From Candidatus Bathyarchaeia archaeon (GTDB taxonomy: Archaea; Thermoproteota; Bathyarchaeia; Bathyarchaeales; Bathycorpusculaceae): a stretch of 60,060 bases of DNA. The first letter of the stretch is position 1; the number at the start of each line of letters is the position of its first letter. The stretch is taken from assembly GCA_050012335.1 (NCBI GenBank), contig JBEKHJ010000001.1, forward strand, positions 1 through 60,060, given 5' to 3'. The notes under the pieces were generated by a model. That model was not told the DNA's origin. It saw nothing but the letters and a program-made list of their open reading frames with translations, and made no database searches. Shown one piece after another: positions 19,444 through 45,386 of this stretch. A program made the position numbers and the translations under genes.

Positions 19444-19604
19444 CTCTCTAAGTTTAAGAACCCAGCATTGATTTCAGTATTCTGATCTTTCGCATCGGAT
19501 TTCAAACCAATCAAGGTTTTCAAATCTCTTGATTTCCGTGGACTGTTAAGCCAGCTCTTTTGCTGCAGAAGACCTCTTGATGAAGCCAAGTGCACTAGAT
19601 TGCT

Positions 19605-21872: not shown

Positions 21873-21874
21873 TT

Positions 21875-23086
21875 CTAATCCTTCTTTTGAATTACTTGAT
21901 CATACAGCGAGATAAGGTCATTACCTATCTTCTCGGGCAAGAACCAATTAACCAGATTTCCAGACTTTGTAGCCATTTCTCTCAGTTTTTCCGGCGAACC
22001 TCCCAATTCGATAGCCGAGTCGGCTAGTTCTTGGACGTCATTTCTCACGACTACTCCACCCGAATCTCGGGCAAATTCCATTCCTGCGACACCTACCGAA
22101 GTTGTTAGCAAGGGCAACGCTGCCTTGAAATAATCCAGAAATCTACTCCGTATCCCCTCAGCCCTGAAGATTGGGACTAACGCAAAATCCGCAGCGTTCA
22201 GATACTCCTGTAGATCTTCCACATATCCAGTGTAAATGAAGGATTCATCATCAACTGGCGGAACTTTACCATAGTAGCCAATTATCATGAATTTAACCTT
22301 TAGTTGCGAATGATTCTGAATGATTCGTGATATGCTGCTCAAGTTTCTAAGAGCATCTATGTTGTAGCGTTCTGACAACATGCCGTGAAAAACTATGACG
22401 ATTGTCCCTCCTTCTATATTCAATTCTGCACGAATAGTAGTCTTTGATTTTCTTATCTTTTGCTCACCCAAGTAAACTGCGTTTGGAATTGCAATTACTT
22501 TTCTAGGGGGTATCCCCCATGAAACGAGAAAGGTTTTAAGCTCTTCGGTAGGGGTCAAATATCTATTAATCGACTTGTCTAGAATCTTTAAGGCGATTTT
22601 AGACATAAAAAATTGAAGCGATTCTGCCCGTTCAGGCAACACTTCCAAACCAGGAAGAAATGGTCTTGCATGAAAATCTGCTATGGTAGGCGTATTTGTA
22701 AACTTCCCCACAAGTGCACCAATCCAGACTGTGTCATTGGCACAGTGAATCACGTCTACGTTGTTCTTCTCAACAACTCTTTTCACAAAAGTGAAGTATT
22801 CAACCATAAGTGTTAGTAAGTAAAGAAATCGAAAGTTGTCTCTCAGAAACTGATGCCCAAGGGGCATTGAATCAACGAGAATTCCATCATGAGCAAAACC
22901 CGATGTTCTAGTCTTGTCGCAATATTCTATGCTATCAGTCGGTTGCCAAGTAACTATACTGACATTACTAACCCGATTTTTGATGGCTCTCGCAAAATTT
23001 AGTGTTCTTATGGCTGTTCCGCCAATCGGAAAGAATCGTGCATTTAAGAAACATACGTGAAATCGGTGCATTGTTAAACGGATCAC
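21875..23086 (-). CDS. Glycosyltransferase family 4
   Basis: PIGGTAIR, IPNAV, ADFALVP...GIRSRFLDYFKAALP. Confidence 0.88.
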   Translation of the reverse strand: MIRLTMHRFHVCFLNARFFPIGGTAIRTLNFARAIKNRVSNVSIVTWQPTDSIEYCDKTRTSGFAHDGILVDSMPLGHQFLRDNFRFLYLLTLMVEYFTFVKRVVEKNNVDVIHCANDTVWIGALVGKFTNTPTIADFHARPFLPGLEVLPERAESLQFFMSKIALKILDKSINRYLTPTEELKTFLVSWGIPPRKVIAIPNAVYLGEQKIRKSKTTIRAELNIEGGTIVIVFHGMLSERYNIDALRNLSSISRIIQNHSQLKVKFMIIGYYGKVPPVDDESFIYTGYVEDLQEYLNAADFALVPIFRAEGIRSRFLDYFKAALPLLTTSVGVAGMEFARDSGGVVVRNDVQELADSAIELGGSPEKLREMATKSGNLVNWFLPEKIGNDLISLYDQVIQKKD

Positions 23087-23109
23087 TCGGCAATTGAATT
23101 TTGGTTCTG

Positions 23110-23793
23110 TTATGGAGTTTTTCCAATTTGATTATGTATAAGTTCGTCCAAATGCTGCTGTACAAATACAAAAGGCGCTTCCGCGCTTACCGTTGGTACT
23201 TCCAGATAATGGCTGATTATTTGATACTCGTTTCTCTTTCTGCGCAAGTATCCTAATCCTAACACATCGTTTTTTCTTCTCTGCACAGTCTTTTCGTTGA
23301 CGTCAATGTTCACCAAAAGCAGCGAACGAGGCATTAATCTGAACATTAACTGCCCCACCAGACTCTTGTGGAGTTCACGGTCATTGGTATCAACCATTAA
23401 GTCAACCACAATATCTGGGATAAAACGATCGCACACGACGGTGAACCCTCGCCAAAGCAGTGGTTTAACCAGCAAATTCACGAAGATCAGGGCATCTAAG
23501 AACTGAACCCACGGCCAAATTCCAGAAATCGCCTTGTTCTCATAGTATTTGTGTTCGGAAACGATAAGTCCACTCTTCGTTTGATGAGTTGTTGTAAACC
23601 CCAACATGCGGCTAGCTATCATGAACGGATACGCAAAAAAATAGGCGGTGCCAAACCAAACGTATTTGCACTTGATTCCAGATTTATGCAGATTATCGAT
23701 CAGTTCTCTAGCGTGAGTTGTTTTCCCACTGCCATCTATTCCAATTAGGCAAATCATCTTTTTTCCAATTGGAGATTCCAGTAGCTGCCTCAT
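23110..23793 (-). CDS. Thymidylate-kinase-like P-loop kinase
   Basis: GIDGSGKTT Walker A; VVCDRF. Confidence 0.85.
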   Translation of the reverse strand: MRQLLESPIGKKMICLIGIDGSGKTTHARELIDNLHKSGIKCKYVWFGTAYFFAYPFMIASRMLGFTTTHQTKSGLIVSEHKYYENKAISGIWPWVQFLDALIFVNLLVKPLLWRGFTVVCDRFIPDIVVDLMVDTNDRELHKSLVGQLMFRLMPRSLLLVNIDVNEKTVQRRKNDVLGLGYLRRKRNEYQIISHYLEVPTVSAEAPFVFVQQHLDELIHNQIGKTP

Positions 23794-24917
23794 TGCCTTA
23801 TCCCTCCTAGATCACGAGCCTGTGCAAAAGACGGCTCCCTTGATCTAATGCTTCTTTCTCTCAAAACGTTGGATGCAACCCAATCTAAATGCCTAAACCG
23901 CCTATATAGAGACAGATCGGATTCGCCAAGAACTCTTTGGATAAAAAAGAGAACTGATAGGCTATATGGAATCTGTAGAGGCGTGCAGCCAGAGCTAAAA
24001 GGTCTCAAGGTTCTTTGAAATAATTTGAAGCAACCGTAGTTCGTTTCCTCAATCTTGATAAGTCTGTCTTGTGACAGCATATTTCTTCCAGATAATTCTT
24101 TGTATATGAGGTTCACAAGAAGTATCGTTAAACAAAAAGCATTATTCCAATTAAGTCTGCTTGCGTGGTCAAACATATAGTCCCAGTTTATGTTGGAGGT
24201 TCTGAGTTTCGAGGTTATCTTAAGTAAGTCTGCTATTTTGACTTCATGGTTCTCGAAGAAAAGATGAGCGCAGGTAATGAGAATGCAGTCCTCCGAAGAA
24301 GGGACGGAAAAACCGTCATAATCATCAGATATATTGCTTCTACGCCAAAGATAAGAAGAGTCTGCGAATTGTGTTCCTTCCCACTCTACTCTAGTATGAA
24401 TATGCAGGGGCAGTACATCTGGCGTTCGCGCGTTTCTGAACAAATATTTGTGCTGTTCTCTTACTTGAGGAAGTTCGGAATATCCAGCTCTTCTCAGTAA
24501 CTTCACAACCTCTCCCAGCATATTGGGTTTTATTAGAATATCGAGGTTGTCGCTTTCGTAGGGAAAATATCCATCGGACTTAATCAACATGAAATCAATG
24601 TCGTTTTCAGAGAATTCGCGTTTGATTTCTCTGAAAGCAACCTGGTCCCTTTCGCTTTTTAGACTTATGTCGTCGCAAAAGACTTTGACACGTGGGAAAG
24701 CCCTGAAGATCCTATCCTTCAAGACAGGATCCAATTCCAGTTTTTTCTGAAAATTCATGACAACCTTATTGTGACGCAAGGTTTCGATCAAACATGACTC
24801 TTTGAGGCTACTAAACTGCTGCCACAGATCCCTTTTTCCTATGAGACAGGGATCAAGGAAATATGCAACCGTCTCAGTTTCAATGCCGCATTCTTTCAAT
24901 TTTAGCCATCTCTGCAT
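23790..24917 (-). CDS. Nucleotidyltransferase family protein (NTP_transf_5-like)
   Basis: FMLIK...ESDNLDILI, LHIHTRVEW, EDCILITCAH. Confidence 0.78.
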   Translation of the reverse strand: MQRWLKLKECGIETETVAYFLDPCLIGKRDLWQQFSSLKESCLIETLRHNKVVMNFQKKLELDPVLKDRIFRAFPRVKVFCDDISLKSERDQVAFREIKREFSENDIDFMLIKSDGYFPYESDNLDILIKPNMLGEVVKLLRRAGYSELPQVREQHKYLFRNARTPDVLPLHIHTRVEWEGTQFADSSYLWRRSNISDDYDGFSVPSSEDCILITCAHLFFENHEVKIADLLKITSKLRTSNINWDYMFDHASRLNWNNAFCLTILLVNLIYKELSGRNMLSQDRLIKIEETNYGCFKLFQRTLRPFSSGCTPLQIPYSLSVLFFIQRVLGESDLSLYRRFRHLDWVASNVLRERSIRSREPSFAQARDLGGIRQ

Positions 24918-26137
24918 GTTACTGTTTCTCTCAACAATTCTTCGAAGTTATGCGTCACATCATCCCAGTCATAAAGACCCGAAACAAAATGCTTTGCTTT
25001 CTCCCCGATCTGAGCAGCTTCTTCGGGGTGATCAGCAAGAAACAAAATAACTTGAGCCAATGCTTGCGCATTGTTTGGTTCAACCAATATCCCTCGCCCA
25101 TTACCAACGATTTCGGAAAGAGTTCCGAGACTTGTGGTAATCACAACCTTCCCCAAATTCATGGCTTCCAGAACAGATAATGGAGGTTCGCTGAAAACGA
25201 TCTTGAAAGGGAGTACAATAACATCAGAGATTAGCAGGTAGTTGATCAGCTGATCTTTGTTCATAATACCGGGAAGAATTTGGACGTTGTTTTCAATCCC
25301 CGTTTGTCTTATCAGTTTTCTTAAATAATCTTCTTCGCTCTTGAGATGCCTATTTTCAGCTGAAGTACCGTTTGTCTTTCGTCTGGAAAGAATTACCAAT
25401 TTTACATTTTTCTTGGATGCCAATATTTTCCGCATACTCAGAACAGCAGTATCAGTCCCTCTCAAGGTGCAAGGTGAACCAAAATACGTGACGATGAACT
25501 CTGTTTGCCCAAAGCCAAATGTGGATCGCGGTAAACCTCTTTCTCCCTCGGATTTGGAGTCTATTCTTTCTATCGTTGAAGGGAGTACTCGGATCTTTTC
25601 TGGATTAACACCTATTTTGCACATGGAATTCTTAAGAGATTGGCCGGGAACAATTATTCTATTAATAAATCTCGAGTTAGCAACACGTTTCATAATGAAT
25701 TTCGGATACATTATTGTAAGTAGTTGAGGAAGAAACAGATTGTGATCAAGATTTAGCAACTCGCGAAAGGAAAGACGGCCTAAACTCCTTAAGGCTGGGA
25801 TGTCCATATCTATATCCCAGATGACAGGCTTTCCAATGGTTCTGAGCTGATTCAAATATATCGCGCTGAGAGGACTTCCATACCAGATAACTACGTCAGG
25901 GTTATCTTTCAATACGACTTTTGCGAGTTCTCGTTTTCCAAAGATTCCCACTAATGTAAGTCGATTGATCCGCGTAACACTTATTCCATCTATCTCTTCA
26001 AACTCACTGGAATTTGGGGTTCTGTCAGATATAATGAAAACAGAGAAACCCCTTTTCGCTGCCATTCGCTTTGATATGGCGAAAACACGGTGCCAAGGTT
26101 GAAGCAGAAGCGAACGGCGACTGAAGCCTTCACACAC
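24902..26137 (-). CDS. Glycosyltransferase family 4
   Basis: SDVIVLPF...PPLSVLEAMNLGKVVITT. Confidence 0.9.
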   Translation of the reverse strand: MCEGFSRRSLLLQPWHRVFAISKRMAAKRGFSVFIISDRTPNSSEFEEIDGISVTRINRLTLVGIFGKRELAKVVLKDNPDVVIWYGSPLSAIYLNQLRTIGKPVIWDIDMDIPALRSLGRLSFRELLNLDHNLFLPQLLTIMYPKFIMKRVANSRFINRIIVPGQSLKNSMCKIGVNPEKIRVLPSTIERIDSKSEGERGLPRSTFGFGQTEFIVTYFGSPCTLRGTDTAVLSMRKILASKKNVKLVILSRRKTNGTSAENRHLKSEEDYLRKLIRQTGIENNVQILPGIMNKDQLINYLLISDVIVLPFKIVFSEPPLSVLEAMNLGKVVITTSLGTLSEIVGNGRGILVEPNNAQALAQVILFLADHPEEAAQIGEKAKHFVSGLYDWDDVTHNFEELLRETVTCRDG

Positions 26138-26177
26138 TATTGCGATCCTCAGCTTCTCTCTACCTCAACTCTTTGTG

Positions 26178-27374
26178 CTATCTACTCTCTCTCACGCTTT
26201 TGTATAAATCAATGTATTTGTTGCTTAAAACTTCCCAGTTGTGATGCTGCTTTACGTATTCGTATGCGTTTTGACCCATCCTATCTCGAAGTCTTTTATC
26301 GGACAAAAGAGTCCCTATTTTAACTGCAAGATCTTTCGAGTCTCTGGGTCGTGCAAGAAAGCCGCTGTACTGGTCTTTAACAATTTCCCTTGTAAACGGA
26401 AAATCAAAAACCACGACAGGTTTTTCCAGTGCCATGGCTTCTAGAACTGACACCGGTTGAGCTTCTCGGAGACTGGGAAATACAGCAACGTCTGCTGCCA
26501 AGATTTCTTCCATTAACTGATTACGGTCCACTTGACCATGGAGGAATATTCTGTCTTTCAGACCCCGACTCAGGATTAATGCTTGAATCTTCTCTTTCAT
26601 CGGGCCTGCTCCAAACATGTTCAGTCTCAGATTTGGATGATTGGGAATTAGATTCTCAAATGCTTGTAGGAGGTAAGTGATTCCCTTATAGTAGTACAAA
26701 CGTCCAGCGAATATTACTGAGGTCGTTGTCACATTTTCCTTCTTCTTGAAGCGATTTTTTATATCTTGGATTTTTCCGAAATCTATTCCGTTGGGAATCA
26801 CCAGTGACTTTCCCAAATCAATATTCCTGTAAAGGGTACTTAATTCGTTGAGCGTTGTCTTGCTGCAGGTTATTATTTTGTCTGAATTGCGCAAACCAAC
26901 CTTGACAAGTGCATCGTTCAAGGGAAACTCAAGAAAGCTGTATCCAAAATCCCCGATGGTCCAAGAGTTGGCTGGTGAATTCGCGAAAGCCCTAAGGTCA
27001 TAAAAAGGAACGCCATGATAAGATGTTATTAGCGGTATTTTCAATTTCCTCTTCAAATAGACGCTCAGAAACGCCATTTGATGGCTAACTGAATGAATTA
27101 TCCCATAATCTCTTCGTTGCTTTAAGATGTTAAGGAAATTCTGGGCTTGAAACCAAAGAAATCGAGGCGGCAGATCAAGACAGGGTAACCTGACTATTTC
27201 TAAATAGTCATTTGGCTTCTCAATAGCAATTTTGTTGGACGCCCCACAAAAAACGGTTGTGTGGATCTTCCGTTTGGAAAGATTGCAAGCCAAATCCCAA
27301 GTGACGGCACCTATTCCTCCGAATAGAAAGGGCGGAAATTCTTCTGAAAGCAACGCGACTTTGGGATTAGACAA
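26178..27374 (-). CDS. Glycosyltransferase family 4
   Basis: EFPP..GGIG, IPNGID, FAGRL..YKG, FPSLREAQPVSVLEAMA. Confidence 0.93.
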   Translation of the reverse strand: MSNPKVALLSEEFPPFLFGGIGAVTWDLACNLSKRKIHTTVFCGASNKIAIEKPNDYLEIVRLPCLDLPPRFLWFQAQNFLNILKQRRDYGIIHSVSHQMAFLSVYLKRKLKIPLITSYHGVPFYDLRAFANSPANSWTIGDFGYSFLEFPLNDALVKVGLRNSDKIITCSKTTLNELSTLYRNIDLGKSLVIPNGIDFGKIQDIKNRFKKKENVTTTSVIFAGRLYYYKGITYLLQAFENLIPNHPNLRLNMFGAGPMKEKIQALILSRGLKDRIFLHGQVDRNQLMEEILAADVAVFPSLREAQPVSVLEAMALEKPVVVFDFPFTREIVKDQYSGFLARPRDSKDLAVKIGTLLSDKRLRDRMGQNAYEYVKQHHNWEVLSNKYIDLYKSVRESR

Positions 27375-27467
27375 TCCTTGAGCTCCATTTGTTTAAAGCA
27401 GGCAATTCTATATCGGTTCATTGAGAACACGCGCGCTATCTGGGTTCTGAATGTAGCAGAAAAAGGT

Positions 27468-28688
27468 TCACGAGACTCTTCGAGTGTTTTCGATTTTCTC
27501 CCATTTATACTTCGGGCCGGAAAGAAGCAGTGATAACAGACTGAATAGGAGAATCAACTCCATCGAAATCAAATCTATAATGGACACAATCATATGAAAA
27601 CTTGAATTGCTCTTCGCGTTCTTCAGTGTGATATCTGTAGCAGGGGAATTAATTTTGAGAGAGGCGAAAACGACAAAACCTGTCAATACCAGCAAGACTA
27701 ATGGCAGGAAGACTGAAAAGAGATTGAAATAGAAAAACACTATCAGCAAATAGCTTGCTAAACAAACCGCAGTCAAAACAGGCGAAATTATGTTCATAAA
27801 GAACTCGAATGGCATTATTACTGAAGAAAATTTTCCATATTCTCTTTTGAAAAGCAGATTGCTGCATCTTAGAAGAGTCTGCTGGTTGCCTTGCCCTCGC
27901 CTAATTTTGTGTTTCATTCGTGTAGAAAATGTTGATGGGGAATATTCAAAGAAGAGTATGCTTGGGTCATAAACGGCGCGGAATCCCTTCTTTCTTGTCT
28001 GAACCGTCAATTCCATATCATCGCAAATACTGTTACATGGGATTGTTCCAAGCAATTCTCTCCGGTAGGCAGAGAACTCGCTTTCACACATCATCACCGA
28101 ATCCAGATTTGTTTCGCCTAGCCTTAATGTGTTGTAGAAATTTCTGTATCCTTGCTCTAACTTGGTAGATGAGGACTCATCAGGGTTCTGGATTACCTCA
28201 ATCCCTGAAACTGCACCAACCGCTGCGTCGTTGAAGTTAGCGGTTGCCTGCAACAACGCGTCTTTGCTAACCATGACATCAGCATCGGAAAGAACAACGA
28301 TGTCACTACTGCAATTCTTCAGCGCGTAATCCAGCGCCGCCGATTTTCCCAACCTTTCCTCTTGTGTAAGCAAACGGATTCTCGTTTTATTTTCCTTCTG
28401 CATTAAGTCATTGACTATCGATCTGGTATTATCAGTCGAGCCGCTATCAACAACTAGAATTTCAAATTTGTCTCGCGGATAATCCAAGCCCAAAGTGTTG
28501 TCAAGTTTTCTTGGAAGTACTTTCGCTTCATTGAAAGTCGCAATTACCATTGTCAAAGTTGGGAAAAAAGGCTTCTTTTTAATTGTTGAAGGCTTTCTTG
28601 CAAATGTTATGGTAAGTAGAAAATATGATAGTAACCCTACCCAAAGAGCTAGAAAGGTTCCGACAAAGACAAGTTCAACTATATACAT
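27468..28688 (-). CDS. Membrane-bound processive-type GT2 (PgaC/cellulose-synthase-like)
   Basis: IATFNE, VVDSGSTD, GKSAAL, SDAD, CDD, KIRR; N- and C-terminal TM helices. Likely start ATG 28688 (track start 28832). Confidence 0.88.
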   Translation of the reverse strand: MYIVELVFVGTFLALWVGLLSYFLLTITFARKPSTIKKKPFFPTLTMVIATFNEAKVLPRKLDNTLGLDYPRDKFEILVVDSGSTDNTRSIVNDLMQKENKTRIRLLTQEERLGKSAALDYALKNCSSDIVVLSDADVMVSKDALLQATANFNDAAVGAVSGIEVIQNPDESSSTKLEQGYRNFYNTLRLGETNLDSVMMCESEFSAYRRELLGTIPCNSICDDMELTVQTRKKGFRAVYDPSILFFEYSPSTFSTRMKHKIRRGQGNQQTLLRCSNLLFKREYGKFSSVIMPFEFFMNIISPVLTAVCLASYLLIVFFYFNLFSVFLPLVLLVLTGFVVFASLKINSPATDITLKNAKSNSSFHMIVSIIDLISMELILLFSLLSLLLSGPKYKWEKIENTRRVS

Positions 28689-30039
28689 GATTTTCGTCAG
28701 TCCAAGTAGTTCTTTTGTCTGTATTTGAGGCACATATTTTTCTTGGCAACTCAATGAGTATCTCATTGTCGCAAGCAATTGAACTAAGAAGTTCTTCATA
28801 CAACGGAAGCCCTTTACTATCGAGGAGACCATATTCAGGGTGAATGAGCAAAACGCATGCGCCTCCTAATTCCTTGATCACCGTTAGAGTGGTGAGATAG
28901 GCTGCAACAACTTCTTTTGGAGCATAACCTAAGACATAAAGGAATTGGTGATCTTGCATTATCGTGACTGGTAATTCCCTAATTCCTGAGATGGATATTG
29001 GAAAAATGGTGCCTATTCCGTGACAGCGCATTGTCCGCGGATGCTTCGCCTCCCAAGTAGGAACAGAGGTATCATATTGATATCCGCAATCCTTTAGGCT
29101 CGAAAAGATGTCGGGATTGTGTTGAAGTAATGGAGCTCGAAAACCAACTACTTTGTTCTTGACTATTTTCTCAAGAGCGCTCTTGGAGTCTTGAAGTCTA
29201 GCAGTTAAGGTCTTTTCAGAAAGAGAAGAAAGACGGCCATCATGTTTCGTATCATGCGATCCGACCTCGCCGCTATTTGCCAGAGTCGCGATAGTTTCCC
29301 GATCCAGTGAATACTCAGCTGAGGGAATGTACCATGCTGAACTAATATCATATTTCTCTTCAAGCTTCTTTATTTTCACTGATCTGAAAAGCCCAGCTCT
29401 TGTTTCTACATCGTGAGTTATTGCACATACGCATTTCTTGTTTTGCCCCCAGCCTCTCAGCCTGATTTTTTTCTCCGACAGATGTTCAATCTTTCTTAAT
29501 AGTTCAAATCGCAAAGCATCTATAGGCAGGATATTGCTTACGTTAAAATCCTTGGCAATGCTGCCTCGTTTCATGAGAGTATTTCGGAAGCGCCTTGGAA
29601 TGATATTGTAAGGCAAGGGCAAAGTTGTAAACAAAGTGTAACTTAGAGATGCTTTTGCACAAAGTGTTTCTCTCATTATTCTCTTGTATTCGTTTACAAT
29701 GTCAAATGCAAGTATGGCAGAGAGGTCTTCGTTTTCTTTTGGAAAGACTTTGCATTCGTAGGTTAGTTCAGGAATAATGCTCAAAGCTAACTCTGAGGTA
29801 GCACGCACAGAGTAATTCCCATGTTTTTTCGTCACACAACGATTGGTACTTTTTGTCCATCGATCAAAGCTAGCTGAACATGATGGGATTACAATTGTCT
29901 GTGAAAAAGCTGATGGGTTTTTGCCATATACGATTGTGACATCAGATTCATCGTGAGGTGTGTAGCTAATGTCCCAGGGAGACAGCAATTCTTGGATAAT
30001 TTGCTCTTCTCGCTCATCGGCAGCGATACTTACTTTCAT
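28675..30039 (-). CDS. Polysaccharide deacetylase family protein
   Basis: THDVET, EVGSHDTKH, GFRAP, YDTS, LLIHP. Confidence 0.88.
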   Translation of the reverse strand: MKVSIAADEREEQIIQELLSPWDISYTPHDESDVTIVYGKNPSAFSQTIVIPSCSASFDRWTKSTNRCVTKKHGNYSVRATSELALSIIPELTYECKVFPKENEDLSAILAFDIVNEYKRIMRETLCAKASLSYTLFTTLPLPYNIIPRRFRNTLMKRGSIAKDFNVSNILPIDALRFELLRKIEHLSEKKIRLRGWGQNKKCVCAITHDVETRAGLFRSVKIKKLEEKYDISSAWYIPSAEYSLDRETIATLANSGEVGSHDTKHDGRLSSLSEKTLTARLQDSKSALEKIVKNKVVGFRAPLLQHNPDIFSSLKDCGYQYDTSVPTWEAKHPRTMRCHGIGTIFPISISGIRELPVTIMQDHQFLYVLGYAPKEVVAAYLTTLTVIKELGGACVLLIHPEYGLLDSKGLPLYEELLSSIACDNEILIELPRKICASNTDKRTTWTDENHVYS

Positions 30040-30244: not shown

Positions 30245-31249
30245 CTAGTGAATAATTTTTGGGCAACGCACGCCATGCGCTCTTGGAGTTACTAGGGATG
30301 CAGCCTTCAGTGCATGGTAAGTTAATATCATGTCCGCACCAGATCTTTTAATCGAGTTCAAAGTTTCCAAAAGCAGTGTGTCAGCATCTATGTGAGCATG
30401 TTCTGCGAGTAGGTTGATCATTGCGTACTCGCCGCTTACTTGATAAGCAGCAATGGGCATCGTGGGGTACTCTTGTTTTACCCGCATAATCAGGTCCAAA
30501 TTTGTTAAAGCAGGTTTAACTATAATTATGTCAGCACCTTCACTGATGTCTAGTTCCACTTTTTGCATAAACATCTTGCCATTTATTATATCAGTCCTAA
30601 ATCTGCTAGAATCGACATTTTGGTGGGCATGAGAAGAGGTCATTGCCTCTTTAAACGGATTAAAAAGACAACTGTCAGTCTTGACGTAGCTCATTATGGC
30701 TACTTCATCAAAACCGGCACTATTCAACGCTTGCCGCATATGCCTGACTTGCCCATCACACATGGCCGCCGGCGCAACAACATCGGCTCCAGCTTCAGCA
30801 TGAACCACAGAAATCTTGCCTAGCATTTCTGCCGTTTTTTCGTTCAACACTTTTCCTTTTTCCGTGTAGACACAGAATTCGTCTTTTGTGTAGTCGCAGA
30901 GGCATACATTAGAAATTAGAACCAGCTCCTCTCCGAACTCGGTTTTTAGCTTCCTGAAGATTTTTGTGTGAAATGCATCTTTCTTTAGCGCTACTGAGGC
31001 ATCAGCATCTTTTGCCTTCACGATACCGAAAACCATAATGGCAGGTATACCGCAGTCGATTGCTTTTCCGCAGGTGTTAACAGCATCGTTTAGAGAAAGA
31101 TATTCCTGACCTTTCATTGAGGGAACTTCAAATTTCCTCCTGTCCTCTCTGACAAATATCGGGTATATTAGGTCGCTTGCAGAAAGTTCAAAAGGTCTTG
31201 CAAGTCGAATCATCTGCTTGGATACTTTAAGTCTGGTCGTCAAATGCAT
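30245..31249 (-). CDS. hemB: Divergent porphobilinogen synthase (ALA dehydratase) homologue
   Basis: DLIYPIFV, Zn cysteines CLC...C, AGADVVAP, IMSYVK, GADIIIVKPA, AYQVSGEYAMI, KRSGADMILTY. Confidence 0.9.
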   Translation of the reverse strand: MHLTTRLKVSKQMIRLARPFELSASDLIYPIFVREDRRKFEVPSMKGQEYLSLNDAVNTCGKAIDCGIPAIMVFGIVKAKDADASVALKKDAFHTKIFRKLKTEFGEELVLISNVCLCDYTKDEFCVYTEKGKVLNEKTAEMLGKISVVHAEAGADVVAPAAMCDGQVRHMRQALNSAGFDEVAIMSYVKTDSCLFNPFKEAMTSSHAHQNVDSSRFRTDIINGKMFMQKVELDISEGADIIIVKPALTNLDLIMRVKQEYPTMPIAAYQVSGEYAMINLLAEHAHIDADTLLLETLNSIKRSGADMILTYHALKAASLVTPRAHGVRCPKIIH

Positions 31250-31814: not shown

Positions 31815-33149
31815 CTATGGATCGAAAAATCTCTTCAAAATAGAAGGAGATTCCTGAAAAACCAGAGTAAGAAAGTCTTGGATCCATCGTGAACTAGCAG
31901 ATTTGGACCCATAAAAGATGGGGGTCAGCATATTTGCGTTTAAACCGATTTCGTCCTCCATGATTGCAACCTCGCAGAGTCGGGTGTGTGGATAAATTCG
32001 CATTCTTGCCGTTGAAAAATATCCAAGCTTTCGCCTACACCTGAAGACCGCTTTTGCCCAAAACTCGGCAAGAGCTACTAAGTTTCTAAGATTGCCTCGT
32101 GGGAGATCATAGAAAAAAGTATACCCAACATTAGCGCCTTTAACCTGACACGCCATATCAATTGTGCGTTCAATGTCTGCAATCCTAATTTGCTTCCCCA
32201 AAAAGGTCAGAACCGGATCAGACGCGCCATCGGAATGAAACTCAAATCTCGTGCACCCTGCATCCACAGCCTCACGCATTAACCTGATGTTCAAAAGGTC
32301 CTCCCGAAAATATGCATGCCATTGCACATCCAAATTTCTTTTTCGAATCTCTACACAAATCTCGCTACTATGTCTGGGCGGACAATTGAAAATAGGATCA
32401 ACAAACCAAAAAGATTTCACGTTATAATTATTCACAAGCTCCTCTATCTCATCAACAACCTTACTAGCAGAACGCAGCTGCAGAATATAGTTACCCAAAA
32501 AAGGATCTGTGCAATAAACGCATCCAAAAGCGCATCCACGCTTCGACTGAACATTCAAAGAATAGGGTATCTTTTTGTATTCTGACATATCAAAAAGTTC
32601 CCTTGCTGGAGAAGGCAGAAGGTCAAAAACCGCAGGTTCCTTCACCCCCGTGAACGCAACCCCATCTTCACCCTGAACGAGCAGATTCCTAACCTTCTCA
32701 GGATGGCTAATATTTCTTAGGAGAGTGGCAAAAGTGGTCTCACCATCCGAAACCACCCCAAAATCAATCTCCCGGTTCTCACTCATAATCTCTCTGGAAA
32801 AAACCGAGAAACCAGGACCACCAACAACTATCTTACATGAAGGCGTTGTATTCCGTATTAGCCTCAACATCTTTCTAAACTGCGAGTAGAAACTCGGGCT
32901 TTTGCCGAAGCGGGTATTATTCAGGAAATCCATATTCCTAAAGGAAATGCCGACAACCTCAGGTTGCTCATCCTGAAGACGCTTTGATAACACGCCTAAA
33001 GGATTGCGAATGACATTGGCGTCAAAAACACTCAACTCGTGACCTTCTAGCATCGAAGCAATATACGCCACGCCCAACGGAAACACGCGCGCGTGCGAAT
33101 GAAAGACTGAGTCGTCACCATAGTATTGAGAGCACAGCAAAACCTTCAA
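31815..33149 (-). CDS. Cobalamin-binding radical SAM protein
   Basis: N-terminal PLGVAYIAS...VVGISFRNMD...GGPG B12-binding domain; QSKRGCAFGCVYC motif. Confidence 0.92.
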   Translation of the reverse strand: MKVLLCSQYYGDDSVFHSHARVFPLGVAYIASMLEGHELSVFDANVIRNPLGVLSKRLQDEQPEVVGISFRNMDFLNNTRFGKSPSFYSQFRKMLRLIRNTTPSCKIVVGGPGFSVFSREIMSENREIDFGVVSDGETTFATLLRNISHPEKVRNLLVQGEDGVAFTGVKEPAVFDLLPSPARELFDMSEYKKIPYSLNVQSKRGCAFGCVYCTDPFLGNYILQLRSASKVVDEIEELVNNYNVKSFWFVDPIFNCPPRHSSEICVEIRKRNLDVQWHAYFREDLLNIRLMREAVDAGCTRFEFHSDGASDPVLTFLGKQIRIADIERTIDMACQVKGANVGYTFFYDLPRGNLRNLVALAEFWAKAVFRCRRKLGYFSTARMRIYPHTRLCEVAIMEDEIGLNANMLTPIFYGSKSASSRWIQDFLTLVFQESPSILKRFFDP

Positions 33150-33415: not shown

Positions 33416-34630
33416 CTAGTCCATTTCTGTAGAGTTACCTGAGAGGGTTTTGAGGAGCCTATCGGTGGTTTTTTCCCAAGAAAAAGCTTTGGACCTTTCC
33501 AACGCTTTTTCGCCCATTCTTCGTCTAAGAGAAGAATCTAATGTCAACCTATTCACTGCTGAAGCCCATTCGACCACTGAAGGCTCAAGCAAGAAACCAG
33601 CATCACCAAGAACCCCAGGTACACCGCCTCGATTGCATGCCACCACTGGCTTACCGCAAGCCATGGCCTCAAGAACCACCAGCCCAAAAGTGTCGATAGT
33701 ACTGGGAAACAAGAAAATGGAACATTCCTGCATTAACCTCACAACTTCAGAGTCTGATGGATACAAGACTATCTCAAACCTGTCAGAGATTTCCATTTCC
33801 TCTGCTAGACTAGCTAACTTAGACTTGTACCACATGTGCTGCGGCTCAATGTCTCCTGCAATGGTTAGAGAGCAAGATTCAGGTGCCCTCTTCATTGCCA
33901 TCACTGCGAGCTCCAGAGACTTATGAGGGTGAATCCTTCCAAGGTATAACGCAAAATCTCCTGATTTATCCACAGGATAGAACCTATCGTGGTCAATTCC
34001 CAACGGAACGACTGCTGCTTTTTTGTGTCCGATGGTTCCTTGTCTTCGGGCTTGTTCAAGTTGGAATCGGCTGGGCGCAAGGAAAGTGCTCAGTTTTCGG
34101 AAGCTAGCCTGCTTCAGACTTCTAAATGGAAGTGAATCGTAGAGCCCATCTATTAGTCTTCTGCGCAATGTTGCCTCCATAAAAGGAACATTAAAAGGAG
34201 GAGGCATTGGTCGAAGCACGTTGAGATAAACCATTCCGATGGGTTCATAGAAATTGTAGAAGTATGGAAGCAGCCAATGTTCTCCGTGATATTGATACAG
34301 GGCAACGTCGCATTGGGCATCTGCTATGCTTCTGCTGATTTCAAGTGCGTATTCCGTTTGTCGCCACAAATAAGCAAGTTCTGTCGGAATTTTCAATAAA
34401 TCGCTTTCTCTTCGCGATAATAAAGGGCTTTCTCCGCTTATTGCTTTCTTCCCCGGGACTAAATGAATTGGCATTCCGAGAAATTCCTGAAAACATTTTC
34501 TTGCATCTAGCTTCGTTGTGTAGATTTCAACCTCATGCCCTAGACTCTGCAATTGACGCGTTACCTCATACGTGAAGCGTCTCGAGCCTGTTCTCTGTGA
34601 GAGGTCTTCGTCCACAAAGGCGATTTTCAA
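33416..34630 (-). CDS. Glycosyltransferase family 4
   Basis: PLGID, YLGRIHPHK, FPSTIDTFGLVVLEAMACGKPVV. Confidence 0.93.
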   Translation of the reverse strand: MKIAFVDEDLSQRTGSRRFTYEVTRQLQSLGHEVEIYTTKLDARKCFQEFLGMPIHLVPGKKAISGESPLLSRRESDLLKIPTELAYLWRQTEYALEISRSIADAQCDVALYQYHGEHWLLPYFYNFYEPIGMVYLNVLRPMPPPFNVPFMEATLRRRLIDGLYDSLPFRSLKQASFRKLSTFLAPSRFQLEQARRQGTIGHKKAAVVPLGIDHDRFYPVDKSGDFALYLGRIHPHKSLELAVMAMKRAPESCSLTIAGDIEPQHMWYKSKLASLAEEMEISDRFEIVLYPSDSEVVRLMQECSIFLFPSTIDTFGLVVLEAMACGKPVVACNRGGVPGVLGDAGFLLEPSVVEWASAVNRLTLDSSLRRRMGEKALERSKAFSWEKTTDRLLKTLSGNSTEMD

Positions 34631-34747: not shown

Positions 34748-35569
34748 CTAAGAATTTTGGCCGGAAGCCGCCTGAAATAGTGCAAAAGCCTTTCTCAACT
34801 TGAAGATATGGAGAAGGCCTCTTCTAATCCTGATTTTGCCAGTTAACCAGGACTTAACCAAATCGCGCACGCTGGCTCCGCTTCCAATAATTAAGGAAGA
34901 CAGAGGAATACTTCCCTCGATAATTACATCAGAGTTCTCCGCTTTTCCCTCTTCCAAATAAACCTTTTCAGGTTCAATGTACACTGAAAATTCTGGAACC
35001 CCTTTTAACCTAAACGAAATACTCATTGCAAGCTCTTTGAACTGCTTTCTAATTGCATCATTTGACTTAATTGCTTGGTCTATTTCCTCAAACTTTTCTT
35101 TTAGCTCTTGACAATTGAAAAGTTTTCTGTAAACAGTGGTGTGATTAGGAGCACTTACGTATCCTGCTGCTGGATGATAGAAACGGTTAACTAACTTAGG
35201 GCGACCAACAAAACTATAGCTCACAACAATCCCTCTCTCCTTAAAGGCTCCAGACAAACGAGGAAAACGAATCAGCTCCAAACCTATCCTTTGACCTCTA
35301 TAATTAGGATGAACAGCAATGTCAGCGCCTAAGGCGGCCTTAACATACGTATTGTTTGACAATTTGAGCTCTCTATATAGCCAGTAATTGGATCCAATTA
35401 GCTTTCCGTCTTTTTCAGCTATTACCACGAGTGAATTGGCAAAACTGGGATTCATTCGATACTTCCAAAACCACAAATTGCTATCCCTGAAACTGGGAAA
35501 AGTAATCTTCAGCAATTCTTTCAGCCCGACTTCATCTTCGTCACGGAACAGTCTGCACGAAAAATTCAA
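34748..35569 (-). CDS. GNAT acyltransferase with C-terminal SCP2-like domain
   Basis: DIAVHPNYRGQRIG CoA-binding motif; C-terminal SDVIIEG...WLTGKIRIR (SCP2-like). Confidence 0.82.
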   Translation of the reverse strand: MNFSCRLFRDEDEVGLKELLKITFPSFRDSNLWFWKYRMNPSFANSLVVIAEKDGKLIGSNYWLYRELKLSNNTYVKAALGADIAVHPNYRGQRIGLELIRFPRLSGAFKERGIVVSYSFVGRPKLVNRFYHPAAGYVSAPNHTTVYRKLFNCQELKEKFEEIDQAIKSNDAIRKQFKELAMSISFRLKGVPEFSVYIEPEKVYLEEGKAENSDVIIEGSIPLSSLIIGSGASVRDLVKSWLTGKIRIRRGLLHIFKLRKAFALFQAASGQNS

Positions 35570-35599: not shown

Positions 35600-36424
35600 C
35601 TACCCTATGTCTGCACGAGGCATGAACCAAGGTGTTCTAATCTGCAACAGATTGAACAATTTTTTGACTTTGGATATCTTCCAAAATGGGTGAAAGCGCA
35701 ATTTTGAAGCCATTACATCTTTCAAAAGACTCTCTGTTCCGAAAATGAGAGCAACAACGGTTGACATTTCAGCCTCTATTGTAGTTCTTTGAACTGGGAC
35801 AGGCTTTTCTAGAATAGTAACTTGGTTCTTTTCAAGTTTTACCCCGAAGCTGGGGAGACACCAAGGCGGACAGTTCTTCAGATTAAACCAGAACACTTCA
35901 TTTATGTCCAAGATTTGGTTTTTGGCTTGGAGAACTTCACGAATCAATTGAGGCAAATCGAGGATGCTTAGGAACATCGCTTCAGAAGGTGACTCTGCAA
36001 AATCCATGTCCTGGCATACTTCACGCACCACCGGGTCCTTGTCGTACGCATTAAAAACCACAGAACTGCTACCAACGCTTTTGGCATAATTCTCCGCCCA
36101 ACTGAGAAGTTTTGAAACAACAACCTTTGCTATATTAGACGAATCGTAACAGAGTTCCCAAATGTTACCAGATTTTCCAACCACAACATAGCCTACAATT
36201 TTATTCTGTTTTTCCAGGATCAGGATGCCTTTTTCCTCGACATCTGGACGTTTCAGACAGCACCAACGCCAGTATTCAACGGTCCTTGGAACAAAACCAG
36301 CCAAGTTAGCGTTTTGGGCATTGAAAAGAAGCACAAGTGAAGTCTCGTCGCCTTGCTCATACGTCCGAGAACTATATTCGCCCGTATTGTCAGCCAATTT
36401 CTTCGCTCCTTGTTTCAATCTCAT
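35600..36424 (-). CDS. GNAT-fold protein with C-terminal SCP2-like domain (Eis-like second half)
   Basis: RTYEQGDE, VPRTVEYWRW, IVGYVVV, LLSWAENYA; WFMPRADIG terminus. Likely start ATG 36424. Confidence 0.72.
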   Translation of the reverse strand: MRLKQGAKKLADNTGEYSSRTYEQGDETSLVLLFNAQNANLAGFVPRTVEYWRWCCLKRPDVEEKGILILEKQNKIVGYVVVGKSGNIWELCYDSSNIAKVVVSKLLSWAENYAKSVGSSSVVFNAYDKDPVVREVCQDMDFAESPSEAMFLSILDLPQLIREVLQAKNQILDINEVFWFNLKNCPPWCLPSFGVKLEKNQVTILEKPVPVQRTTIEAEMSTVVALIFGTESLLKDVMASKLRFHPFWKISKVKKLFNLLQIRTPWFMPRADIG

Positions 36425-36464
36425 ATTGAAATACACTGCAAAAAAAAGACCCACGAAACGCACA

Positions 36465-37766
36465 CTAGAATACTGTTCGCTCAGTCTTCGTCTGGAATAA
36501 TCGTTCAGCGGCTTCCAGCAATCCGTTGTCGCTGCTTAAAGCCGCCGCTCTCAGTTGCTCTATAGGAATTTGCGCAACTCTTTCAATTAGCTCCCTCGAG
36601 AAACGTTCTATGATGGCAAGCTTCTCTTTGTCCGATATGCCCATTTTACGTATTGCTCTTGTTAGTTCCTTCAATCTTATCTCTTCGTATCTCTTGAAGA
36701 TTTCATTGATTAATGGTTGCGCAACAAGCTTTGAGAGTTCTATTTCAAAGCGGCTCAGTTCCTCAGAAACTATGACTTTCGCCTTCTCAGCCTCAATCGT
36801 TCTATTTCGCAAGGTCTGGTCAACTATCTGTTTCAAATCATCAATTGTTTTCAGGCAAATTCCATCTAGAAGACCCACTTCTTCTTCAATTGCTCTAGGC
36901 TGCGAAATGTCAATCATCAACGCCTGTTTCGATCTTGGTGGATCAGTCATAAAAGAAATCAGCTCCTGTTCCGTGAAAAGTGGCGCCTTAACTGAGATTG
37001 CAGTAATCACCAAATCCGCATGGCAAATCGCAGCAAGAACGTCACTGAAAGGAATCGCAAACCCAGACACCTTTTCTGCAAGAACCTGACTCTTTTTGAA
37101 AGTTCTGTTGGTGATTGTCATTGCAGGAACCCCATAACTCTTCAATGCTTCGGCCGCAAGTGTTCCTGCTTCTCCTGCCCCTATGATTAGAACTTTCTTT
37201 GATTTCAAATCGCCTAGTTTATTTGATGCAAGGTCGACTGCTGCCGAACTTATCGAAACTGAACCCTCATTAATCTTTGTTCTTGTTCTGACTAGCTTGC
37301 CGGTGTTTAGTGCTTTCATAAATACTTTATCAAGCAGTTGCCCCGTAGACCCGTGCTTCCTTGCAGCCAAGAAAGCCTTACGCACCTGACCGATAATTTG
37401 ATCTTCGCCTAATACCATCGACTCCAGTCCAGAAGTCAAATAGAAAAGATGCTCCATCGCCTTTTTTTCGTAATAAAGTTGTGCCAACTTTGCGATAATA
37501 TCGGAACTCACACCTGTGATAGTGCTCCATTTTTTGAGTATTTGCTTTATTGCCTCATCGCGATCTGGCGTATTTAGCTTGCAGTATATCTCCACGCGAT
37601 GACAGGTCTGGATAAGAACACATTCTTGCGCAATTTTCTCCGAACAAAGAGCCTGCACGAACGCACCTTTGTCCTGGAGAGTGAGAGATTCAAGGACCGG
37701 TACGCTTGCGTGCTTGTAAGAAACGGAAAGACAAACCAGCATGAAAAGCCCAACTTTAATGTACAT
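36465..37766 (-). CDS. hemA: Glutamyl-tRNA reductase
   Basis: QTCHRVEIY catalytic Cys, GLESMVLGEDQIIGQV, SISSAAV, IGAGEAG, NRT, IDISQPRAIE. Confidence 0.95.
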   Translation of the reverse strand: MYIKVGLFMLVCLSVSYKHASVPVLESLTLQDKGAFVQALCSEKIAQECVLIQTCHRVEIYCKLNTPDRDEAIKQILKKWSTITGVSSDIIAKLAQLYYEKKAMEHLFYLTSGLESMVLGEDQIIGQVRKAFLAARKHGSTGQLLDKVFMKALNTGKLVRTRTKINEGSVSISSAAVDLASNKLGDLKSKKVLIIGAGEAGTLAAEALKSYGVPAMTITNRTFKKSQVLAEKVSGFAIPFSDVLAAICHADLVITAISVKAPLFTEQELISFMTDPPRSKQALMIDISQPRAIEEEVGLLDGICLKTIDDLKQIVDQTLRNRTIEAEKAKVIVSEELSRFEIELSKLVAQPLINEIFKRYEEIRLKELTRAIRKMGISDKEKLAIIERFSRELIERVAQIPIEQLRAAALSSDNGLLEAAERLFQTKTERTVF

Positions 37767-37783: not shown

Positions 37784-39067
37784 TTACTTTTCAACGATTA
37801 CTTTAAGGTATTTACCTTCCAATTGACCTACAGGAATAAAGACCACTTCATTGAAATTTATTCCTACACGATTCTTAATATCGTCGGTAATTTCCTTCCT
37901 AAGCGAAATCTCCGCGGTCTGGGACAATGCGCCATTAGTTTCTACTCTAAGCAAAGTCTCGTGTTTGGGCGTACGTTTATCAACGATTATTTGACATCTG
38001 CCAGTAAGTTCATGGAACTTCCCGAGCAAGAATTCAACGTGACTTGGAAAAACAGTTACGCCTCGGATCTTTGTCATGTAATCTTCTCGATCGATGTCAG
38101 CGCCGATTTTCAGATCGCACATGCCGCAAGAACATTCCCCAAACCCAAAATAGGTTGTTATGTCACGGGACAAATACCTTATCAACGGAAAGGCCTCCCT
38201 TTGAAGACTAGTGACCACCAGTTCGCCTCTTTCTCCAACGTCAAGAGGCTCATGAGTTTCCGGATCCACGATCTCAACTAAGTAATAGTTGCCCCAAATG
38301 TGATGCATATTCTGGTCCTCTCTGCAGTTGACAGAGAAACCTGGAAACTCTGTCGAGCCATAGTCGCTGATGACCTTTTCGTATCCACCCTCCCTTTTGA
38401 GGATTTCAACTTGACTTGCAGTAGGTTTCTCTGCCACACAAAAAGCAGTTTTCAAGTTATAATTCCTAAGGTTTTCTCCAAGAGCTTTAGCCACTTCCAA
38501 TATTCTAAAATGGTAGCTAGTAGCTGCATAAAGAATGGTAGTCCCGAATTGTTTGATTATGAGAATTTGACGCTCTGAGTCAGCTGGACCAACGGGAATT
38601 ACGAAAATCCCGGCCCGTTCGGCGCCCCAATGCATTGACCAACCGCCTTGCCACAAGCCATAGGCAGAAGTAATCTGAACTATATCCTTTTTTGTTGCGC
38701 CATGGTAGAAAAGCCTTTGCGCAGATGCATCTGCAATCATATTTATGTCTTTACGAGTGTGCGCAATTTTCAGCGGATGCCCAGTGGTTCCGCTTGACAG
38801 CCGCACAGTGGCAATTTTAGAGCAAGGCACAGCTAAGATTTCGTGGAAGTTTTGTTCCAATTCTTCTCTCGTGATAAAAGGAATTTTGGTTACGTCTTGC
38901 AGACTCTTGATGTCAGAGGGGTGTATTCCTGCTTTCTCGAATTTTAACCGGTAAAAACTACTGTTCGCGTAGACCCTATTCAATTGCTTCTGCAATAACC
39001 TTAGCTGCAGGCTTTTCAGTTCATCTATTGAAGAGTAAGTCTTGCAATCCCAGAATGGTTTATTCAT
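37784..39067 (-). CDS. Phenylacetate-CoA-ligase-family (ANL) acyl-adenylating enzyme
   Basis: LSSGTTGHP, YGSTE, GELVVTSL...PLIRYLSRD, KIRGVTVFPS. Confidence 0.9.
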   Translation of the reverse strand: MNKPFWDCKTYSSIDELKSLQLRLLQKQLNRVYANSSFYRLKFEKAGIHPSDIKSLQDVTKIPFITREELEQNFHEILAVPCSKIATVRLSSGTTGHPLKIAHTRKDINMIADASAQRLFYHGATKKDIVQITSAYGLWQGGWSMHWGAERAGIFVIPVGPADSERQILIIKQFGTTILYAATSYHFRILEVAKALGENLRNYNLKTAFCVAEKPTASQVEILKREGGYEKVISDYGSTEFPGFSVNCREDQNMHHIWGNYYLVEIVDPETHEPLDVGERGELVVTSLQREAFPLIRYLSRDITTYFGFGECSCGMCDLKIGADIDREDYMTKIRGVTVFPSHVEFLLGKFHELTGRCQIIVDKRTPKHETLLRVETNGALSQTAEISLRKEITDDIKNRVGINFNEVVFIPVGQLEGKYLKVIVEK

Positions 39068-39108: not shown

Positions 39109-40386
39109 TCATGCCAGTTGACGAAGGGCATCTGAAAAACATTCAACGGTTTTCTCCAAATCCTCAGGTGAATGCGCCTTTGACAGGAAACAGGTTTCAA
39201 ACTGCGACGGAGGTATAAACACGCCCTTTCTCAAGAGCTCAGCATGAAACGCCATGAACTTGTGATTATCCGACGCCTTGGTACTAGCATAGTCAAACAC
39301 AGGTTTATCGGTGAAGAACAACTGAAACATAGACGCAACATGGTTAATCTGTAGGTTCAAACCAAGTGCGGAAACCGTCTCACCTAACGGCTTCACAATC
39401 GCCTCGCACTTCCGCTCCATCTCAACATAGAATGCCTTACCGCTCTCTTTCAACAATCCAAGTGTCGCCAAACCAGCAGCAACACTCAACGGATTCCCAC
39501 TATAAGTCCCGGCCTGATATACCTTGCCAGATGGCGAAATTAGCTTCATAATATCCTCTTTACCTACGTACGCAGCCATCGGCAAACCGCCACCCAAAAT
39601 CTTCCCCAGGGCGGTCATGTCAGGCGTCACACCAAAATACTCCTGTGCTCCTCCAAGAGCAAGCCTAAAACCAGTAATAACCTCGTCAAAAATCAACACA
39701 ACACCGTAAACTTCAGTTAGCTCCCTCAGCGCCTGCAAGAAACCCGGCTTCGGCAAAACCACGCCGATGTTCCCGATCACGGGTTCAACAATCACAGCGG
39801 CCAAGTCATCCTTGTTCTCTTTCACTGCTTTTTCGAATTTTTCCAAATCATTGAACGGAACCACAACAGTGTTCCGCGTCGTCCCCTCCGGAATCCCAAG
39901 AGAATCAGGCACACCAAAAGTGGACGCGCCAGACCCTGCCTTCACCAAAACACCATCATGAGCACCATGATAGCAACCCTCAAACTTGATGAACTTATTC
40001 TTCCCAGTATAACCCCTCGCCGCCCTGATCGAAGCCATCGTTGCTTCTCCACCAGTGCTGACCAAACGAACCATTTCGGCTGAAGGAACAATCTCAGACA
40101 CCAACTCAGCAAAATCAACTTCCTGTTCTATCGGCGTACCATATAACGCGCCAAACTCAAGCTGCGCCTTGACAGCCTCAACTACCCTCGGATGAGAATG
40201 ACCCAAAATAAGCGGTCCAAAACCCAAGCAGTAATCAATGTATTCATTTCCGTCGACATCAGTAATACGCGAACCCTTACCTTGTTTGGTGAAGAAAGGA
40301 TTAGGCTCAAATGCTCTCACCGGACTGTTCACTCCACCAGGAATAAGCTTTTTAGCTTTCTCAAACAAATCGGCAGATCGTGTCAA
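39109..40386 (-). CDS. hemL: Glutamate-1-semialdehyde 2,1-aminomutase
   Basis: IPGGVNSPVRAF, FEGCYHG, FDEVITGFR, PLP lysine GKILGGGLP, YQAGTYSGNP, PSQFE. Confidence 0.97.
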   Translation of the reverse strand: MTRSADLFEKAKKLIPGGVNSPVRAFEPNPFFTKQGKGSRITDVDGNEYIDYCLGFGPLILGHSHPRVVEAVKAQLEFGALYGTPIEQEVDFAELVSEIVPSAEMVRLVSTGGEATMASIRAARGYTGKNKFIKFEGCYHGAHDGVLVKAGSGASTFGVPDSLGIPEGTTRNTVVVPFNDLEKFEKAVKENKDDLAAVIVEPVIGNIGVVLPKPGFLQALRELTEVYGVVLIFDEVITGFRLALGGAQEYFGVTPDMTALGKILGGGLPMAAYVGKEDIMKLISPSGKVYQAGTYSGNPLSVAAGLATLGLLKESGKAFYVEMERKCEAIVKPLGETVSALGLNLQINHVASMFQLFFTDKPVFDYASTKASDNHKFMAFHAELLRKGVFIPPSQFETCFLSKAHSPEDLEKTVECFSDALRQLA

Positions 40387-41225: not shown

Positions 41226-41234
41226 TTTGTAATT

Positions 41235-43806: not shown

Positions 43807-43912
43807 TTATTTTCACCTGTGATTTTGATTCCTTAAAAAACACTCCGAAAAAAAGAATGTATTAACATTTCTTTGGTGACTGGCAAATGACTTAGTGATA
43901 CCTAACAAAGTT

Positions 43913-45385: not shown

Positions 45386-45386
45386 G

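Follow-up and report, generated by a model that had tools for sequence, protein, structure and literature searches.

What does a homologue of porphobilinogen synthase (PBGS, HemB) do in a genome without hemC, where its gene stands beside genes for ALA supply and among glycan genes? The question is raised by a gene at 30245..31249 on the minus strand of the window, the 60,060-nucleotide stretch of a Candidatus Bathyarchaeia archaeon contig analyzed here. The initial annotation had read its product as a HemB homologue with an intact P-site and a remodeled A-site, possibly condensing ALA with a different carbonyl partner. We call this 334-aa paralogue HemB*. Features below are on the minus strand unless stated otherwise.

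Kept and changed residues of HemB*

The assignment of HemB* to the PBGS family was borne out by the PF00490 profile (E 1.7e-96; 323.5 bits, cut-off 24.6) and by the fold: all listed Foldseek matches of its AlphaFold model were PBGS barrels (TM 0.68-0.81). The best PDB match was a solved PBGS (E 2.4e-63). HemB* also passed the PBGS equivalog NF006762, with 323 bits against a cut-off of 297; a canonical relative scored 492. Lid residues 193-221 had pLDDT <50 in the model, which does not give the pocket geometry. Seven short contigs from a peat RNA run lay on 17 kb, one of them over 31159-31307; given their uncertain origin from RNA, they were not counted as evidence. A scan for sigma-70 promoters and terminators, which does not cover archaeal promoters, stayed at chance level.

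In human PBGS, the P-site ligands are S279, Y318, K199 and K252, and the A-site ligands are R209, R221 and the Zn on C122/C124/C132, according to the accessible part of PMC13465085. We mapped the human residues onto HemB* through a eukaryote-like intermediate sequence. The counterparts of K199/K252, C122/C124/C132, S279 and Y318 were kept as K190/K245, C116/C118/C126, S272 and Y311, all at the positions given by the initial annotation. Five other residues were replaced: D120 by N114, S168 by A161, R209 by K200, R221 by S214 and Q225 by R218. In canonical PBGS, the D120/S168 pair presumably holds the A-side amine; its counterparts in HemB* are N114/A161.

For each of these positions, we compared the best 120 of 7989 homologues of HemB* with a canonical control of 104 sequences, 28 from genomes of this class and 76 from metagenome loci. 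N114, C116, C118, C126, K190, F196, R218, K230, K245 and Y311 were invariant in all 120. The Zn loop (residues 114-126; 30872..30910) kept its three cysteines, with N114 in place of Asp and the HGH turn replaced. At A161 (30767..30769), Ala was found in 111 homologues and Ser in 9, against Ser in 104 of 104 canonical sequences. The half that holds the P-site residues K245, S272 and Y311 (30317..30517) was intact, S272 being present in 118 of 120.

The segment with K190 and the lid (residues 187-220; 30590..30691) was rebuilt. In alignments to solved PBGS, one residue was deleted just before K190; this shortening, like N114 and A161, had been seen in the initial annotation and agreed with our position check. 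Column 200 was Phe in 84 of the best 120 homologues, Lys in 26 and Tyr in 10; thus the previously noted change of Arg to Lys is present in HemB*, but it is a minority state and incidental. Column 214 was Ser in 102, Pro in 12 and Gly in 6. Arg occurred in neither column in any of the 120, and the lid Gln was likewise absent. The loss of both arginines therefore stood, while the picture of a lid that was merely stripped did not: R218 and a Lys or Arg at position 216 (119 of 120; R216 in HemB*) were gained. In the canonical control, the Asp, Ser, first Arg, Gln and Glu columns were each uniform in 104 of 104, and the second lid position was Arg in 98 and Lys in 6.

A further change, overlooked in the initial annotation, was K230 (30560..30562), with Lys in 120 of 120 homologues against Glu in 104 of 104 canonical sequences. 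We take this Glu column to be the allosteric Mg site of PBGS. By analogy, K230 may stand in for the allosteric Mg, as arginine does in animal and fungal PBGS according to the text available for PMC7729013, which also describes basic lid residues as binding the A-side carboxyl. Seventy-two columns were at least 95% conserved in the 104 canonical sequences; in the variant, 49 of them were kept, 3 were partly kept, 9 were lost and 11 had switched to another conserved residue. The switched or lost columns were concentrated in the N-terminal arm, the Zn loop, the lid and the Mg site, and in residues 234-313 only 280 and 281 were among them.

In brief, HemB* resembles the Zn-dependent PBGS (HemB/ALAD, EC 4.2.1.24; Pyrobaculum 5lzl, E. 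coli 1b4e, human 1e51) in its fold (TM ~0.8), lysines, Zn cysteines and P-site Ser and Tyr. It departs from them in the A-site, where Asp, Ser, Gln and the two lid Arg have given way to other residues, in the basic residues gained at 216 and 218, in the one-residue deletion before K190, in Lys for the Mg-site Glu and in an altered arm motif; it is never the partner of hemC and sits with a ligase in glycan clusters. Judged by its sequence, HemB* is a structural member of the PBGS family without the A-site and pathway features of EC 4.2.1.24, and not a proven PBG synthase.

The best 120 of the 7989 homologues were 68-100% identical to HemB*, and those named by NCBI came from Bathyarchaeia or Bathyarchaeota with one exception. 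P0058, a clade member labeled Acidobacteriota, was on a 2.7-kb contig and nested among archaeal sequences; mis-binning is as likely here as transfer. When 1.84 billion representatives were searched with a profile, the top match was full-length and scored 637 bits, and the next scored 329; three further full-length or nearly full-length outliers grouped with the variant clade. The long-branch sequences P0122, P0124 and P0125 all have the lid Arg and the deletion ahead of the first lysine, and they grouped with the clade (SH-aLRT 99); in P0125 the Asp is kept, and P0122 is without one Zn Cys.

In a quick tree, the 12 variant rows formed one side of a branch (SH-aLRT 100), and both quick trees gave the variant clade a long stem and short tips. 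The sister group was not resolved in these trees, and we claim no donor. The dN/dS ratio was 0.02-0.10 in 7 of 153 pairs, the other 146 being saturated at silent sites. As far as sequences tell, the clade pattern is consistent with a shift in function and purifying selection thereafter. The initial annotation had named decay and the sharing of the substitutions with housekeeping HemB as outcomes that would count against its reading. Decay was ruled out by the invariant residues in 120 homologues and by dN/dS at or below 0.10 in the seven unsaturated pairs; the same substitutions were found in none of the 104 canonical sequences, 28 of them from this class.

Of 401 genomes sampled from the order, 16 carried the variant, and these were spread over five families. 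The class and phylum samples gave no carrier from any other order; both carriers among the 401 genomes of the phylum sample belonged to this one. No variant was found on plasmids, where all 664 matching records had <60% identity. A related-locus search of genome contigs confirmed one of 79 stretches, a frameshifted variant, and a metagenome scan with generic patterns gave two variant loci among 80 kept, the remainder being canonical control.

Several variant copies were split or fragmentary (L156:17793-18777 in G610, L001:1547-2497 and L152:7527-7838 in G351); in these, sequencing error and loss cannot be told apart. One genome, G130, had two intact variant copies (C2:2233-3204 and C49:4585-5553) and no canonical hemB or hemC.

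The gene module and its glycan surroundings

Two genes of the window could supply ALA. The hemA gene for glutamyl-tRNA reductase (36465..37766; TIGR01035 355, cut-off 210) is a locus-specific copy, 36% identical to a canonical relative and with the catalytic-motif Cys present. The hemL gene for glutamate-1-semialdehyde aminomutase is at 39109..40386 (TIGR00713 600, cut-off 527). Between them lies the gene for a PaaK-like adenylate-forming ligase (37784..39067) of a distinct clade.

Its best solved matches were phenylacetate-CoA ligases of the PaaK type (TIGR02155; PDB 4r1l, 2y27; E 7.5e-73), and the adenylation motifs were conserved. Unlike PaaK, it scored only 273 bits against a cut-off of 646 for TIGR02155 and 262 against 700 for NF041878, and the segment after the conserved YGL, FTGGLG in PaaK, is Trp-rich in the locus ligase clade. 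The altered pocket segment and the scores far below the PaaK cut-offs make another acid likely as its substrate.

GNAT1 (34748..35569) is an acyltransferase of a GNAT and an SCP2-like domain, and GNAT2 (35600..36463; GNAT + SCP2 fold) is its paralogue (hhalign probability 98.7). What we take to be the usual CoA-binding motif was kept in GNAT1 and absent from GNAT2, whose true start is probably ~24 codons downstream of the called start. The best fold matches of GNAT2 were Eis-type acetyltransferases (GNAT-GNAT-SCP2), and its SCP2 domain was found by profile. In the locus, unlike in the Eis type, the proteins come from two genes, with a single GNAT and a single SCP2 domain apiece, and the whole-chain TM was only ~0.35. 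Two further genes lie between HemB* and the GNAT pair: an accessory one for a B12-binding radical SAM protein (31815..33149), with close homologues at 8 of 19 clustered loci, and one for a GT4 glycosyltransferase (33416..34630), with close homologues at 6 of 19.

Thirteen loci were long enough to show the module. The ligase and both GNATs were present in all 13, hemA in 12 and hemL in 10. The ligase/GNAT neighborhood, which the initial annotation had proposed to look for in homologues with the same substitutions, was thus common to all the long loci. At the canonical hemB loci scanned, no homologue of the ligase or the GNATs was found at E 1e-5.

The ligase clade, with scores of at least 750 bits against at most 362 for other ligases, was found in 19 of 401 genomes. 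It was present in 15 of the 16 carriers of the variant; the sixteenth, G130, has an assembly gap between GNAT2 and hemA. The other ligase-clade genomes were G331, where the variant is cut at a contig end, and three fragmented ones (G311, G457 and G575; 73-87% complete), which had the ligase and no PF00490 match. The PaaK-like ligase is the tightest partner of HemB*.

The GNAT pair is less strictly bound. In G357 (98% complete) and G324 (one contig), neither of which gave a hemB match, it stood without a neighboring ligase, hemA or hemL. The pair is therefore not specific to the product proposed below; strict coupling to the ALA module is ruled out, and the assignment of the pair as the transfer step is weakened.

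Distant relatives of GNAT1 and GNAT2 (L198 and L199 in G368, L202 in G072, L203 in G533) were seen near a distant PaaK-like ligase, together with an aldehyde ferredoxin oxidoreductase-like gene and DUF362, in genomes without hemB. The ligase and the GNATs may have been recruited from an older module of this kind. In G217, the radical SAM gene and GNAT1 of the variant locus have between them a gene for a 400-aa UbiD-family protein (L035:3184-4386), which was seen at none of the other loci scanned.

The module is enclosed by glycan genes. Downstream, at 15249..30039 (mostly minus strand), are genes for polysaccharide deacetylases, GT2, three GT4, DUF2206, a hexapeptide acyltransferase and NTP_transf_5, with a GH5 gene on the plus strand; the DUF2206 product is a membrane protein. 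Upstream, at 40503..44521, are GT2, hexapeptide acyltransferase, Gfo/Idh/MocA oxidoreductase, DegT aminotransferase and DUF1616 genes. All the extended variant loci examined were likewise set among glycosyltransferase or sugar-modifying genes. The neighbors varied from locus to locus; glycosyltransferases, deacetylases, sugar oxidoreductases and DUF2206/DUF1616 were the constant types.

At 41235-43806, the hexapeptide acyltransferase, Gfo/Idh/MocA oxidoreductase and DegT aminotransferase genes stand in a row. To our mind, this trio resembles the WbpD/WbpB/WbpE set for di-N-acetylated uronic acids, and it is a possible source of amino-sugar acceptors. A 311-aa protein encoded at 18508-19443, with no Pfam or NCBIfam match, was also found at the G217 and L001 loci and again on contig C153 of G000, the genome that carries the window. 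The glycan cluster is flanked, within 3613-10583, by genes for proteins of 1501 aa (kelch, DUF2341) and 839 aa (Vps10-like), possibly surface proteins. At the cluster edge (45131-45659), a pair of small neighboring genes has, by eye, the appearance of a RelE-type toxin-antitoxin system.

Separation from haem and B12 synthesis

In the genome G000 (91% complete, 264 contigs), hemA, hemL and a hemB-like gene each occur once, within the HemB* locus. The genome gave no match to PF01379 or PF02602, and queries from the operons of canonical relatives found no hemC, hemD, cobA, sirC, cbiD, cbiG or corrin methylase in it. In those relatives, hemB is in an operon with hemL, hemC, cobA, hemD, sirC and cbi genes.

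A scar of these genes was found on contig C8 of G000. In a same-genus relative, a 5.3-kb block of hemD-cobA-hemC-hemL-hemB-sirC is flanked by genes that are now adjacent on C8. About 18 codons of the C-terminal tail of hemD were left (C8:22274-22350, L206), directly beside a cbiA-like gene. The housekeeping pathway was therefore deleted within the contig while the copies at the HemB* locus stayed intact, and an assembly gap is ruled out as the reason for the missing hemC. Another remnant, next to tRNA-Val at C58:8637-8949 (L205), consists of the beginning of cbiX and ~25 codons from the start of canonical hemA. On C8, ABC-transporter-like genes, recognized by eye, follow; they possibly serve corrinoid uptake.

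Among the 15 other carrier genomes, hemC was present in four, once as a contig-edge fragment. These were exactly the ones with a second, canonical hemB (G217, G454, G467 and G590). It was absent from the other 11, including G611 (1 contig, 97%) and G525 (7 contigs, 98%). The absence of hemC reported in the initial annotation holds for G000, and elsewhere the variant was accompanied by hemC only where a canonical hemB was also present. The carriers are kin, so these co-occurrence counts are not independent.

The ALA-supply genes followed the same division. All ten of the long loci with hemL were in genomes without hemC. The three without hemL were in G217, G467 and G590, which all have hemC and a canonical hemB; G217 and G467 also gave a housekeeping hemL, whereas none was found in the fragmented G590. 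In G467, an extra hemA ~24 kb from HemB* has stops, while HemB* is intact. ALA supply was therefore dropped where it was redundant, and HemB* was not.

The shared neighborhood, the restriction of hemC to carriers with canonical hemB and the outcomes for substitutions and dN/dS together give good support to a role outside tetrapyrroles. On these sequence comparisons, we are highly confident that HemB* would have such a dedicated role, whatever its chemistry.

Candidate reactions and their meaning

A different carbonyl partner for HemB* is plausible. Our tentative reading, to which we give slightly less than even credence, is that HemB* would join ALA to an amine-free oxo-acid, and that the resulting non-PBG pyrrole acid would be activated and put on a surface glycan. 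We hold a little more loosely to the narrower proposal that the reaction would be a mixed Knorr condensation of ALA with a central oxo-acid, in a patchy HemA/HemL/ligase/GNAT pathway that would put a pyrrole-acyl group on a bathyarchaeal glycan.

In this scheme, the intact hemA and hemL of the locus would make ALA, as expected from their families. ALA would enter the unchanged P-site, forming a Schiff base on K245 and being held by S272 and Y311. The A-site would take an oxo-acid without the C5 amine, its carboxylate repositioned and held by R218 and K/R216. No conserved gene supplying an alternative A-site partner was found in the module across the loci compared, so the partner would be a common metabolite or an N-acylated ALA. 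Candidate metabolites include acetoacetate, oxaloacetate, succinate semialdehyde and levulinate. The PaaK-like ligase would then convert the pyrrole acid to an activated form, an adenylate or a CoA thioester. Activated PBG would close to a lactam; a pyrrole without the amine avoids this closure. The neighborhood suggests that the GNAT pair would move the acyl group onto an amino sugar, and that the B12 radical SAM enzyme might methylate in an optional step. A glycan is the likely acceptor, as proposed from the neighboring genes.

Some observations speak against hetero-condensation. With K/R216 and R218 in place of the lost arginines, the lid could still hold the ALA carboxylate; the PBGS equivalog cut-off was passed, and Ser was retained at position 161 in 9 of the 120 homologues. 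The three fragmented genomes that had the ligase and no PF00490 match, the GNAT pairs outside the module and the lack of a conserved partner-supplying gene also count against the scheme.

The closest logic among known systems is that of the C5N triad for 2-amino-3-hydroxycyclopent-2-enone in actinomycetes, which, according to PMC4525017, consists of a cyclizing ALA synthase, an ALA-CoA ligase and an amide synthase. There too, a paralogue of a tetrapyrrole-trunk enzyme with conserved active-site substitutions is joined to an acyl-CoA ligase and a transfer enzyme for an ALA-derived unit. In the module here, by contrast, HemA/HemL would supply the ALA, HemB is the enzyme that has been altered, the ligase belongs to the PaaK-like group, GNAT-SCP2 proteins would serve as transferases and the setting is an archaeal glycan cluster. 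No cyclizing ALA synthase gene was found among the 26 locus proteins scanned.

Other reactions could be considered for the same genes. HemB* might still make PBG from two ALA, with K/R216 and R218 in place of the arginines and K230 in place of Mg; the ligase would then take up PBG or its lactam for a purpose outside tetrapyrroles, for example to decorate a glycan. This would agree with the conservation of all catalytic and Zn residues, the near-invariance of the two new basic lid residues, the score above the equivalog cut-off, and the fact that HemA and HemL are the only conserved substrate-supplying genes. The arm of PBG is also aryl-acetate-like, and the ligase's best solved matches are phenylacetate-CoA ligases. 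A basic side chain for the allosteric Mg has its precedent in animal and fungal PBGS, in the available text of PMC7729013. We nevertheless consider it unlikely: the Asp, Ser, Arg and Gln that all 104 canonical sequences have are each replaced, and G217, G454, G467 and G590 keep HemB* beside canonical hemB even though redundant ALA-supply genes were lost or broken there, so HemB* is not redundant with a PBG maker. The loss of the amine-side Asp and Ser and of the carboxylate arginines could be explained with conserved genes alone if the A-site substrate were ALA N-acylated by a GNAT and/or tethered by the ligase as a thioester or amide. HemB* would then act after the ligase and build an N-acyl-PBG-type pyrrole on a carrier. 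ALA-CoA ligases do exist in C5N pathways, as the accessible sections of PMC4525017 describe, but free ALA-CoA cyclizes spontaneously according to those of PMC3679948. The GNAT pair was also found without ALA genes, and the ligase falls in a PaaK-like aryl-acid group, so that this course seems rather improbable.

A still slimmer chance attaches to HemB* forming no pyrrole. It would carry out single-substrate Schiff-base or aldol chemistry on ALA, or bind ALA to protect it or channel it to the ligase, for an ALA-derived acyl decoration. The heavily rebuilt A-site, the altered N-terminal arm motif and the changed Zn cysteine column in outlier P0122 would suit this, but all 120 homologues had both lysines and the three cysteines, the pattern to be expected of an enzyme acting on two substrates. 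That HemB* is a housekeeping or decaying hemB relic, with hemC missed through incomplete assembly, is scarcely credible. Incompleteness of G000 (91% in 264 contigs), the broken copies in G610 and L001 and the fragment in G351 could be cited for it; the deletion of the housekeeping block within C8, the absence of hemC in 11 of 15 other carriers (G611 and G525 among them) and dN/dS at or below 0.10 all contradict it.

No description of such a PBGS paralogue was found in searches of CC-licensed PMC papers and bioRxiv. HemB* is apparently a so far undescribed, conserved variant of PBGS in a glycan-linked module. One consequence concerns annotation. HemB* proteins score above the PBGS cut-off and carry the label porphobilinogen synthase; a set of hemA, hemL and hemB in these genomes is therefore a misleading sign of haem or B12 synthesis.

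PBGS enzymes are regarded as a family with one reaction, and the canonical sequences examined here showed no variation in the A-site. If the hetero-condensation reading is true, a conserved paralogue with a rebuilt A-site would show how an asymmetric condensation can be redirected, and it would be a possible biocatalyst for mixed pyrroles. The tetrapyrrole trunk would then be used outside tetrapyrroles, for an undescribed surface modification in a widespread group of sediment and peat archaea.
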